From assembly GCF_013122565.1 (NCBI RefSeq), contig NZ_CP053258.1: a stretch of DNA of 64,000 nucleotides; one strand, written 5' to 3'. A program made the position numbers and the translations under genes. The notes beneath the pieces are model-generated. The model was not told the origin of the DNA and made no database searches. It worked only from the letters and a program-made list of their open reading frames with translations. Positions 17,921 to 53,107 of this stretch are shown one piece after another. Positions within the stretch are counted from its first letter, which is position 1. Each line of letters starts with the position of its first letter. This DNA is from Escherichia coli. GTDB lineage: Bacteria; Pseudomonadota; Gammaproteobacteria; Enterobacterales; Enterobacteriaceae.

Positions 17921-17944
17921 CCGGATGCGAAAACTCGCATCCGG
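17921..17944. terminator. Hairpin ccggatgcgaaaactcgcatccgg between convergent ybcI and cysS
   Basis: Perfect 9-bp inverted repeat with 6-nt loop directly after ybcI stop. Confidence 0.6.
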
Positions 17945-29845: not shown

Positions 29846-30631
29846 ATGGGATATTTAAATAACGTCACCGGTTACCGCGATGATTTACTGGCTAACCGTG
29901 CGATTGTGAAACACGGTAATTTCGCACTGTTAACACCAGACGGTCTGGTAAAAAATATTATTCCGGGCTTTGAAAATTGTGACGCGACAATCCTCTCCAC
30001 GCCAAAGCTGGGTGCCTCTTTTGTTGATTATCTGGTCACACTGCATCAAAACGGCGGCAACCAACAGGGCTTCGGTGGTGAAGGCATTGAAACGTTCCTG
30101 TATGTGATTTTCGGGAATGTGGCGGCAGAAGTTGATGGGGAAAAATTTGCCTTAAGTGAAGGCGGTTATCTTTACTGCCCGCCAGGCTCCTTAATGACGT
30201 TTGTTAACGCCCAAGCCGAAGACAGCCAAATCTTTTTATATAAGCGCCGCTATGTTCCGGTAGAAGGCCATGCACCGTGGCTGGTTTCTGGCAATGCCAG
30301 CGAACTGGAACGCATTCATTATGAAGGCATGGACGATGTTATTCTGCTGGATTTTCTGCCCAAAGAGTTAGGTTTTGATATGAACATGCATATCCTCTCT
30401 TTTGCACCAGGTGCCAGCCACGGTTATATCGAAACACATGTTCAGGAACACGGTGCCTATATTCTTTCCGGTCAGGGGGTTTATAACCTCGATAATAACT
30501 GGATCCCGGTGAAAAAAGGCGATTACATCTTTATGGGCGCTTATTCTTTACAGGCTGGTTATGGCGTAGGGCGTGGTGAAGCGTTCAGCTATATTTACTC
30601 GAAAGATTGTAACCGCGACGTAGAGATTTGA
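29846..30631 (+). CDS. allE: (S)-ureidoglycine aminohydrolase AllE/YlbA (261 aa), bicupin
   Basis: Cupin-fold sequence; conserved position after allC. Confidence 0.9.
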   Translation: MGYLNNVTGYRDDLLANRAIVKHGNFALLTPDGLVKNIIPGFENCDATILSTPKLGASFVDYLVTLHQNGGNQQGFGGEGIETFLYVIFGNVAAEVDGEKFALSEGGYLYCPPGSLMTFVNAQAEDSQIFLYKRRYVPVEGHAPWLVSGNASELERIHYEGMDDVILLDFLPKELGFDMNMHILSFAPGASHGYIETHVQEHGAYILSGQGVYNLDNNWIPVKKGDYIFMGAYSLQAGYGVGRGEAFSYIYSKDCNRDVEI

Positions 30632-30673
30632 GTCCTACCACTCGCCTGATTATTTTTAGCTATGTTGGATTTT

Positions 30674-30700
30674 GCCACGGTTTATACCGTGGCTTTTTTT
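30674..30700 (+). terminator. Rho-independent terminator after allE
   Basis: gccacggtttataccgtggc followed by a run of 7 T. Confidence 0.8.
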
Positions 30701-30708
30701 GCAACATA

Positions 30709-30840
30709 GCCTGATGCGCTTCGCTTATCAGGCCTACATGATCTCTGCAATATATAGAATTTACGCGATTTTCAGGAAGGATATGGTACTCATGCCGCAT
30801 CCGGCATGAGTACTGCACTCTTATGCGATATAAATCGCAT
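30709..30840. repeat. REP unit plus two further perfect palindromes between convergent allE and glxK
   Basis: REP gcctgatgcgcttcgcttatcaggcctaca; 12-bp-arm palindrome gtactcatgccgCATCcggcatgagtac (30786-30813); 6-bp-arm palindrome atgcgaTATAAAtcgcat (30823-30840). Confidence 0.75.
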
Positions 30841-30858
30841 CCGCTTTAAAGGTAAGGG

Positions 30859-32004
30859 TCAGTTTTTAATTCCCTGACCTATTTTAATGGCGCAGGCAAT
30901 ATTTCGCGCGCTGTTGAAGAGATTGGTTTCACCGCTGGCGAGCACTTCGGCTAAAGGTGCCAGACGTGGCAAAATGCTGAATACCGCGTCAATGCCGTAC
31001 TGGTGCACCACTTCCACGCCATCACCCAATACGCCAGCAATCCCAATCACCGGTACATTAAACTGCTTCGCCACCGACGCAACGCCCAGCGGCGCTTTAC
31101 CGCCTGCCGTTTGCGAGTCGATGCGCCCCTCCCCGGTGATCACCAGTGCTGCCCCCTGCACTGCCTGCTCCAGGTTGACCGCCCGCAGTACAATCTCAAT
31201 ACCCGGTCTAATATCCGCATTGAGAAATACCGCCGCCGCAATACCCATACCGCCCGCCGCGCCGCCGCCCGCCATCTGACAAACATTAATTTCAGTTTGC
31301 TGTTGTAAAACACGGGCGTAATTTTGCAGCCCCTGTTCCAGCTCTTCGACCATCTCCGGCGTTGCCCCTTTTTGCGGGCCAAACACCGCCGCCGCGCCGC
31401 GTGCCCCGACCAGCGGGTTATCAACGTCACATGCTACTTCAATATGGCAATTCGCCAGACGCGGATCGCATTCATCCATCTCAATGCTTGCCACGCGCGC
31501 TAAATTGCTGCCGTTAGCTGCCAGCACCTGACCGTCGGCATCGAGAAAACGCACACCAAGCGCCTGCGCCATGCCCATACCGCCGTCTACCGTCGCGCTA
31601 CCACCAATGCCGAGAATAATATGGCGAATACCGTTATCCAGCGCATGGCGAATTAACTCCCCCGTACCAAAACTGGAGGCCAGCAACGGATTACGCTTTT
31701 CAGGCGCGACCAGCATCAGGCCACTTGCTGCCGCCATCTCAATCACCGCCGTTTTCCCGTCGCCGGTAAGGCCATAAAAAGCATTCACTTTTTCGCCCAT
31801 CGGCCCGCAGACTTCAAGCGTCACGATGTTGCCGCCCGTCGCGGCGACCATCGCATCCACCGTCCCTTCGCCGCCATCCGCTATCGGTAAACAGATATAG
31901 TGCGCATCGGGAAAGAGGGTCGAAAACCCGGCTTTAATTGCCTGACAACATTTTTCTGCACTTAAGCTCTCTTTAAAAGAGTCTGGCGCAATGACAATCT
32001 TCAT
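30859..32004 (-). CDS. glxK: Glycerate 2-kinase GlxK (381 aa)
   Basis: ATG at 32004 ([16 protein letters not shown]...); ORF-track start at 32010 is a TTG extension. Confidence 0.93.
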
Positions 32005-43763: not shown

Positions 43764-43826
43764 TGGGCGGTATTCTGAAACGGCGATTGTCGTGAGAACA
43801 GAATGGTTGCACCAGAATACAGATAT

Positions 43827-43856
43827 AAAAAAACCGACATGACAGTCGGTTTTTTT
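43827..43856. terminator. Bidirectional rho-independent terminator after selU
   Basis: A7-ccgacATGACAgtcgg-T7; works on either strand. Confidence 0.75.
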
Positions 43857-43914
43857 ATTTTTTCCGCCCAAGACTTGGTGGTTCTGGGCAGAAATGAAAC
43901 AGTCCTCATCTAGC
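43827..43914 (-). ncRNA. Candidate antisense small RNA (putative antitoxin) — hypothesis only
   Basis: Minus-strand sigma70-like promoter (-35 TTGAAT, 17-bp spacer, -10 TATAAT; + coordinates 43921-43949); predicted transcript runs into the 43827-43856 terminator; its 5' end is complementary to a 16-nt element upstream of the 27-codon ORF. Confidence 0.3.
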
Positions 43915-44258: not shown

Positions 44259-44276
44259 CTGAGGAAACGTAGCTAA

Positions 44277-44301
44277 GGCCGAAGGTTTACCACCTTCGGC
44301 C
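44277..44301 (+). terminator. Hairpin terminator after the 27-codon ORF
   Basis: ggccgaagg-tttaccacc-ttcggcc followed by TTT, then a second hairpin ccgacatgacagttgg with flanking A/T runs. Confidence 0.5.
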
Positions 44302-44370
44302 TTTAAAAAACCGACATGACAGTTGGTTTCATATTTATTGCCAAAATGCACACTGTTCATGCCAGATGCG

Positions 44371-49880: not shown

Positions 49881-49912
49881 GCTTCCGTTGATCGACACAT
49901 GAACCACAACGC

Positions 49913-49938
49913 CGGATGCGATGCTGCGCATCCGGCAT
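49913..49938. repeat. REP-like palindrome / terminator between convergent cnoX and fetB
   Basis: gccggatgcgatgctgcgcatccggc perfect inverted repeat. Confidence 0.7.
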
Positions 49939-52904: not shown

Positions 52905-53090
52905 TGCGACGCTGACGCGTCTTATCATGCCTACAAAATATGCCCGAATCGTAGGCCGGATAAGGCGTTTACGCAGCATCCGGCGGTTATGCACCGACGC
53001 CTTATGCGACGCGGGCGCGTCTTATCACGCCTACAAATCTGTGCCCGAATCGTAGGCCGGATAAGGCGCTTGCGCCGCATCCGGCATATA
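52905..53090. repeat. BIME cluster (about four REP units) immediately after ybbJ
   Basis: Repeated gatgcgacgc...gcgtcttatca(t/c)gcctacaaa and cgtaggccggataaggcg...gcatccggc units. Confidence 0.85.
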
Positions 53091-53107
53091 GCCGAGTATA
53101 GGCAAAA

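Follow-up and report, generated by a model that had tools for sequence, protein, structure and literature searches.

The closest described relatives of the element analyzed here are the BIME-1 repeats, in which a z1 and a y REP, arranged in inverse orientation, flank a long and conserved L linker, often with an IHF site; such elements occur as a single copy (PMC3333891). The REP itself is defined by a conserved GTAG 5' of the foot of its palindrome, and REPs have been credited with roles as terminators or mRNA stabilizers (PMC3333891). Among the Rho-dependent transcripts of E. coli, 3' ends are marked by stable stem-loops that lack a U-tract and shield the RNA from PNPase and RNase II (Dar & Sorek 2018, PMC6061677). 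In addition, template switching in E. coli turns imperfect inverted repeats into perfect ones and can mimic compensation (PMC7202029, PMC5941160, PMC8794818).

The locus compared here with these systems is the 227-nt spacer between the convergent genes allE and glxK in a 64-kb stretch of Escherichia coli DNA (64,000 nucleotides, analyzed as a whole and hereinafter called the window); the spacer contains two palindromes, pal1 and pal2. The allE gene ((S)-ureidoglycine aminohydrolase; 29846-30631, plus strand) is the convergent upstream neighbor of glxK (glycerate kinase, 381 aa; 30859-32004, minus strand, stop codon at 30859-30861), the final gene of an operon that we take to be poorly expressed. 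Both genes were delineated as open reading frames, with names taken from near-identical RefSeq records, and the C-terminus of GlxK is homologous across genera. Both palindromes fall in the glxK 3' UTR and, as the first-pass annotation of this DNA had placed them, between the allE terminator with its adjacent REP unit (hairpin and T7 at 30674-30700, REP at 30709-30737) and the glxK stop. The spacer probably represents a long allele that consists of the allE terminator, a degenerate BIME-1 and the glxK terminator stem, such that pal1 is a decayed y REP with a passive role at the 3' end and pal2 is a terminator stem whose U-tract has been replaced. The RefSeq records of K-12 MG1655 and five other genomes annotate no feature in the spacer; this silence is uninformative because REPs are unannotated at the paralogous loci as well. 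Two small open reading frames (30660-30818, minus strand, 52 aa; 30672-30809, plus strand, 45 aa) were rejected, given that they cross REP sequence and are deleted in the short alleles described below, as was a promoter-like site at 30678-30649 on the minus strand (1 such site seen against 1.2 expected).

Pal1 (30786-30813) reads GTACTCATGCCG-CATC-CGGCATGAGTAC and forms a perfect hairpin whose 12-nt arms, the length reported in the first-pass annotation, are 100% complementary across a 4-nt loop. The stem had been called unusually long, and so it is: perfect hairpins with arms of at least 12 bp and loops of 3-8 nt occur at 3 loci in the 64-kb window, compared to 0.017 on average across 60 dinucleotide-shuffled sequences, and pal1 is far beyond chance. 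The RNA fold has a predicted energy of -21.2 kcal/mol on the minus (glxK) strand (z = -7.8) and of -19.7 kcal/mol on the plus strand, and pal1 is retained in both the MFE and the centroid folds of the full 230-nt glxK 3' UTR. The remaining two perfect hairpins with arms of at least 12 bp are located at 43825-43858 and 44275-44303; the former is flanked by A7/T7 and resembles a bidirectional terminator.

Comparison of the spacer with other genomic loci points to the origin of pal1. In a megablast search against 5,426 complete E. coli genomes, spacer positions 78-178 (30709-30809 of the window) also match other loci, with 80-84% identity, and two of these paralogous repeat loci, glnS-chiP and pfkA-sbp, were taken for alignment. 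The architecture common to all three consists of an inverted Z-type REP ending in CTAC, a linker of ~35 nt and a y-type REP starting with GTAG, the y unit being decayed in the window. The proximal unit (30709-30737, minus strand; GTAGGCCTGATAAGCGAAGCGCATCAGGC in the minus-strand reading) is an intact and correctly oriented Z1-type REP that retains GTAG and is identical to the Z1 units of pfkA-sbp and glnS-chiP at 29/29 and 28/29 positions, respectively. It is followed by an L-type linker (30738-30772) that resembles the conserved long linker of BIME-1, with 26-30 of its 35 positions identical to the canonical copies. The IHF-like core of the linker (30748-30760, minus strand; ATTCTATATATTG) shows 2 mismatches to the IHF consensus WATCAANNNNTTR, including CAA to CTA, as against 1 mismatch in the canonical copies, so that IHF binding at this site appears doubtful.

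The y unit (30773-30806, plus strand) is a remnant in which the 5' arm has decayed and the apex and 3' arm have been kept. The 5' arm (30773-30789) matches at 10/17 positions, with 7/17 bases lost, whereas glnS-chiP and pfkA-sbp agree with each other at 17/17 in the same stretch; the apex and 3' arm (30790-30806) match the canonical copies at 15-16/17 positions. Downstream of the y unit, the sequences of the window and the canonical copies are unrelated. Positions 30772-30775 read TCAG where the canonical paralogs carry GTAG, and instead of an imperfect palindrome of 30-40 nt with the typical stem mismatches there is a perfect 12-bp hairpin with a shifted axis. The 5' arm of this hairpin, its loop and the first 5 nt of its 3' arm derive from the apex and 3' arm of the y REP (30786-30806), and only TGAGTAC (30807-30813) is unique flank. 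Judging from these alignments, the segment 30709-30806 appears to be a degenerate single-copy repeat of the BIME-1 type, and pal1 is best described not as an independent element but as a REP-derived remnant refolded on a new axis, which is displaced by ~10 nt from the original REP axis. The first-pass annotation had offered a REP variant as one possibility; this is apt in that pal1 seems to be a remodeled y-REP remnant of a BIME-1-like element, but an intact REP it is not, both GTAG and the REP stem being lost.

The distribution of the constituent sequences is in agreement with this assignment. The 12-mer GCCGCATCCGGC, which had been singled out as a REP-like core, is indeed REP-derived: it occurs exactly 3 times in the window, and the other two occurrences lie inside canonical y-type REPs. 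The complete 28-mer, unlike a high-copy REP, is single-copy, being found once in the window and at full length only at the allE-glxK locus across the E. coli genomes, with partial y-REP matches as the second-best places. Many identical copies of the 28-nt palindrome genome-wide, which the first-pass annotation had proposed as the sign of a known repeat family, were thus not seen; only the REP-derived half recurs. In the rhaD-rhaA BIME-2 array, a y-REP variant (GGATAAGGCACTCATGCCGCATCCGGCA) includes 20 nt, ACTCATGCCGCATCCGGCA(T), that are identical in pal1. Compared to this variant (GTAGGCCGGATAAGGCACTCATGCCGCATCCGGCA), pal1 makes use of the unique flank and a different axis, lacks the two stem mismatches and GTAG, and is single-copy as a 28-mer. 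A tandem array of y- and Z-type REPs that is BIME-2-like is also present in the window, at ~52920-53100.

The likeness to the BIME-1 (RIB/RIP) copies at pfkA-sbp and glnS-chiP extends to the order of the parts, the single copy, the near-identical Z1 unit, a linker with ~75-85% identity, location between two convergent genes and polymorphism among strains. The window copy differs in that its y unit is devoid of GTAG and of the REP stem, its IHF core contains the extra mismatch, and its match to the Rfam family ES036/CssrF (32.8 bits at 30730-30772, minus strand) is under the gathering score of 37.6, which the pfkA-sbp copy passes at 48.2 bits. No Rfam family covers pal1 or pal2 in a scan of the region: the REP-derived family naRNA4 scores 16.9 bits over pal1 compared to 36-42 bits on canonical y REPs, and its match over pal1 and pal2 was rejected (E = 2.6). 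The RepRanger supplements contain no match.

Pal2 (30823-30840, minus strand) is a real and perfect palindrome as well, with arms of 7 bp (ATGCGAT/ATCGCAT, loop ATAA) rather than the 6 bp originally assigned to it. On its own, this hairpin is marginal (-7.3 kcal/mol, z = -2.9; 4/200 shuffles fold equally well), and in the fold of the 230-nt 3' UTR it is kept only in the centroid. In the window, the minus strand reads AAGAGUGCA / AAGAGUGC past pal2 and CAUAUCCU past pal1. Of the two components of an intrinsic terminator, the GC-containing stem-loop is present in both pal1 (12 bp) and pal2 (7 bp), but no U-tract follows either hairpin on either strand, and therefore neither fits the definition here. 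In the short alleles of the spacer, in contrast, pal2 leads directly into U6-7, 16-18 nt after the glxK stop; the glxK strand of the short allele reads GGAUGCGAUUUAUAUCGCAUCU-UUUUUUACC, and the same terminator scan that was applied to the window calls a terminator-like site there. With a stem of 7-10 bp, a loop of 4-10 nt and U6-7, the short-allele version of pal2 has the make-up of an intrinsic terminator. Three divergent short variants keep a hairpin and U6 by shifted or extended pairing, with energies from -12.8 to -20.8 kcal/mol: one has a 9-bp stem, another has a perfect 10-bp stem, CGGATGCGAT/ATCGCATCCG, and in the third inner pairs are lost and outer C-G pairs gained. In the short alleles, the terminator structure is conserved through compensatory change, and pal2 is most probably the stem of glxK's own terminator, apparently a canonical intrinsic terminator in those alleles. 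The earlier proposal of a glxK-side terminator holds for pal2, and there only in a historical or allelic sense. In ~510 long alleles of the B type (E. coli B/BL21, HS and others), pal2 carries 2-3 pair-breaking substitutions (ATACGAAATAAATAGCAT) and does not fold, a decay that fits relaxed constraint following a loss of the U-tract.

At the opposite side of the spacer, the allE intrinsic terminator (30674-30700, plus strand, identified in the terminator scan) consists of an 8-bp GC-rich stem, GCCACGGT/ACCGTGGC, followed by T7. It belongs to a block that is conserved across genera (30655-30700) and is composed of TTTAGCTATGTTGGATTTT, GCCACGG..CCGTGGC and T6-8; in 18 enterobacterial loci, the stem is invariant or covarying. 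Across 18-22 enterobacterial loci, the block reads as a hairpin with a U-tract on the plus (allE) strand alone; it lies 5-15 nt from the glxK stop and 25 to 190 nt from the allE stop. The Rfam family STnc480 matches 30638-30704 on the minus strand with 85.8 bits (gathering score 72). The strand on which the hairpin and U-tract coincide suggests that the block is a plus-strand allE 3'-end RNA or terminator module, and the Rfam STnc480 model may be in the antisense orientation; a literature search for STnc480 returned nothing. As a separate observation, the allE terminator in the window is bracketed by a 9-nt perfect complement, GCTATGTTG (30659-30667) and CAACATAGC (30702-30710), the left arm of which is the conserved STnc480 motif; the corresponding sequences are TAACATTGC in K-12, with 2 differences, and CAACATTGC in E. 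whittamii, with 1 difference.

The spacer is polymorphic within E. coli. The full-length, long form is present in 2,360 of the 5,426 complete genomes (~43%), and the short junction was found in 1,774 genomes, with ~490 more carrying divergent short variants (~2,260 together). Pairwise and multiple alignments place the polymorphic segment, from the Z1 REP through pal1, at 30702-30822 (approximate limits). In the short allele, this segment is replaced by ~21 nt, TAGTAAATTCAGGTAAAAAAG, that abut pal2, so that the spacer is ~128 nt long; pal1 is accordingly missing from about half of the E. coli genomes. In 751 genomes, nothing matches the spacer better than a paralogous BIME (80-90% identity), and these genomes may lack the allE-glxK junction altogether. 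The three common alleles, namely the long allele of the K-12/O157 type, the long allele of the B type with a decayed pal2 and the short allele with an intact terminator, provide isogenic-style material with which the effect of REP/BIME insertion on 3'-end formation, mRNA stability and convergent read-through can be tested.

Outside Escherichia, in Citrobacter, Klebsiella, Raoultella, Buttiauxella, Izhakiella and the Enterobacteriaceae isolate RIT691, the glxK stop is 5-15 nt from the allE hairpin, and GlxK of the non-Escherichia enterics ends at the same homologous residue. These two features imply that the whole spacer, including pal2, is an addition in the Escherichia lineage; neither pal1 nor pal2 was found in any of the non-Escherichia relatives examined that have the same gene pair. 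In Raoultella, Klebsiella oxytoca and a related MAG (our loci L020-L022, ~2790-2930), inserted REP-like units (GTAGGCCGGGTAAGGCG...) separate the allE stop from the conserved hairpin block, and hence the allE-glxK spacer is a site of repeat insertion in other genera, too.

Within Escherichia, the segment from the allE terminator to pal2 is hypervariable. The E. whittamii allele (L014, 2856-3000) combines the Z1 REP with a truncated linker, and its right half is different. In the representative of the GTDB species 'E. coli E69' (L012, 2856-3020), a pal2-like hairpin and CCGCTT are duplicated, with an unrelated ~75-nt insert, which includes CCCCTCGCCCCTTTGGGGAGAGGGG, between the two copies; no full-length allele of this type is present among the 5,426 E. 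coli genomes. In the K-12, E69 and whittamii alleles alike, the right breakpoint adjoins the left foot of pal2, which suggests that the junction between the stem and the U-tract is a recurrent point of rearrangement. The A-run block that supplies the U-tract, TTCAGGTAAAAAA, is recognizable in the short, E69 and whittamii alleles and not in those of the K-12 type. From this distribution we infer that the ancestral allele was probably short-like and that the BIME-bearing segment displaced the U-tract, although the long and short alleles differ by a replacement rather than by a clean insertion. The occurrence of the Z1 REP with part of the linker in E. whittamii means that the BIME may be old or might have been transferred by recombination.

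Under the interpretation that we favor, a BIME-bearing segment would have come to lie against the foot of pal2, replacing the U-tract of the glxK terminator. The 5' arm and GTAG of the y REP would have mutated, and the apex and 3' arm would have come to pair with 7 nt of unique flank, with palindrome-correcting template switching, and at most weak selection, producing or maintaining the perfect stem. Transcripts of glxK would be expected to read through pal2 and to end further downstream, through Rho or where the polymerase meets the REP and the allE hairpin in antisense, after which the RNA might be trimmed back to just downstream of pal1 and/or the Z1 REP, both acting as barriers to 3'-to-5' exonucleases. 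Most likely, then, pal1 plays a passive part, as a stable stem-loop that halts 3' exonucleases in the glxK 3' UTR, and transcription would terminate at another site. Pal1 shares with the protective stem-loops of Dar & Sorek (PMC6061677) its stability, its position in a 3' UTR and the absence of a U-rich stretch after it, a likeness of predicted structure; stem-loops of this class are characterized by a steady-state 3' end immediately past the stem, Rho dependence and a rut site further downstream. Downstream of pal1, the excess of C over G is mild (1.67 over 48 nt), and no rut site is evident in this stretch. There is no entry for glxK, allE or ylbA in the Term-seq supplements of Adams 2021, and a literature search on the glxK/allE terminator found nothing relevant. 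Both the long and the short hairpin are known kinds of E. coli intergenic element, and the one mildly new point is that a segment bearing a repeat has apparently displaced the U-tract of a terminator; the main value of the analysis is one of clean-up, in that two striking palindromes are explained as a decayed REP/BIME and a terminator stem without its U-tract.

A more active role of pal1 can also be envisaged, namely that the REP remnant was refashioned under selection, after the loss of the U-tract, into a 3'-end determinant of the glxK operon, an mRNA stabilizer or a non-canonical terminator. We consider this unlikely, although several features speak for it. Pal1 is a very stable hairpin located 9 nt beyond the disabled pal2, and the protective stem-loops provide a precedent (PMC6061677). 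All decay of the y REP falls outside pal1: against the rhaD-rhaA variant, the 5' arm of the y unit shows 5 changes, and the 20 nt falling within pal1 show none. At 30787, the window has T in place of the C of the REP, a change that completes the palindrome. K-12 and B have A-T at pair 3 of pal1, E1V33 and LH50c have G-C, and the intermediate state, in RUT3575, WCHEC035148 and EC98, retains a G.U wobble on the glxK strand. Together, the asymmetry of the decay and the compensatory change from A-T to G-C hint at some selection on pal1, beyond a purely passive reading. Other observations point the opposite way or are neutral: of the four derived variants of pal1, three pair less well, among them the T-to-C intermediate at pair 3, which occurs in roughly 250 genomes according to a reading of identity bands; a C-to-A change breaks pair 11 in the very genomes in which pair 3 was compensated; and the wobble variants are split by strand, one on the minus strand and another on the plus strand, that of HS being a wobble only on the strand opposite glxK. 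About half of the E. coli genomes manage without pal1, and template switching can yield both the perfect stem and apparent compensation in the absence of selection. As in the described cases of quasipalindrome correction (PMC5941160, PMC7202029, PMC8794818), an imperfect repeat, here REP-derived, appears to have become perfect over 12 bp, and paired changes are seen in both arms. On balance, mutational correction by template switching, with at most weak selection, more likely accounts for the perfection of pal1.

A broader version of the selective scenario, which we put forward tentatively and would not expect to hold, is that the spacer forms a natural allelic series in which the BIME-bearing segment disabled the terminator, and the REP remnant, remodeled through template switching, selection or both, has become the feature that sets the 3' end of the glxK operon and limits antisense read-through into allE. 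If that is the case, the series would document how one repeat element destroys a 3'-end signal and also supplies its replacement.

It is very improbable that pal1 and/or pal2 serve this genome as a functioning Rho-independent terminator for the glxK operon. In its favor, the hairpins lie 18-72 nt past the glxK stop, pal2 is the terminator stem in other alleles, and pal1 is GC-rich and stable; against this, the sequences that follow them on the minus strand (AAGAGUGC and CAUAUCCU) provide no U-tract, the scan that detects the short-allele site finds no minus-strand terminator-like site in 30400-31100 of the window, and pal2 has been lost in ~510 genomes that keep the operon. The first-pass suggestion of a protein-binding site, be it for a dimeric regulator of the allantoin regulon, IHF, gyrase or TnpA-REP, is hardly credible: perfect dyad symmetry, the frequent binding of IHF to BIME-1 linkers and the binding of Pol I, gyrase and TnpA-REP to REPs (PMC3333891) would favor it, but E. 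coli genomes with the short allele lack pal1, none of the non-Escherichia loci with the gene pair has either palindrome, the position of the palindromes at the 3' ends of both operons is far from promoters, the features required by TnpA-REP (GTAG and the stem mismatches) have been lost, and the IHF-like core has its extra mismatch in CAA.

Elsewhere in the window, perfect hairpins that read CCGGATGCG-loop-CGCATCCGG occur at two sites (17921-17944 and 49911-49936); they are REP-head-like and are located at gene ends without strong T-runs. Both resemble the extended pal2 stem of one short allele, CGGATGCGAT..ATCGCATCCG, and may form a class of REP-like 3'-end hairpins.
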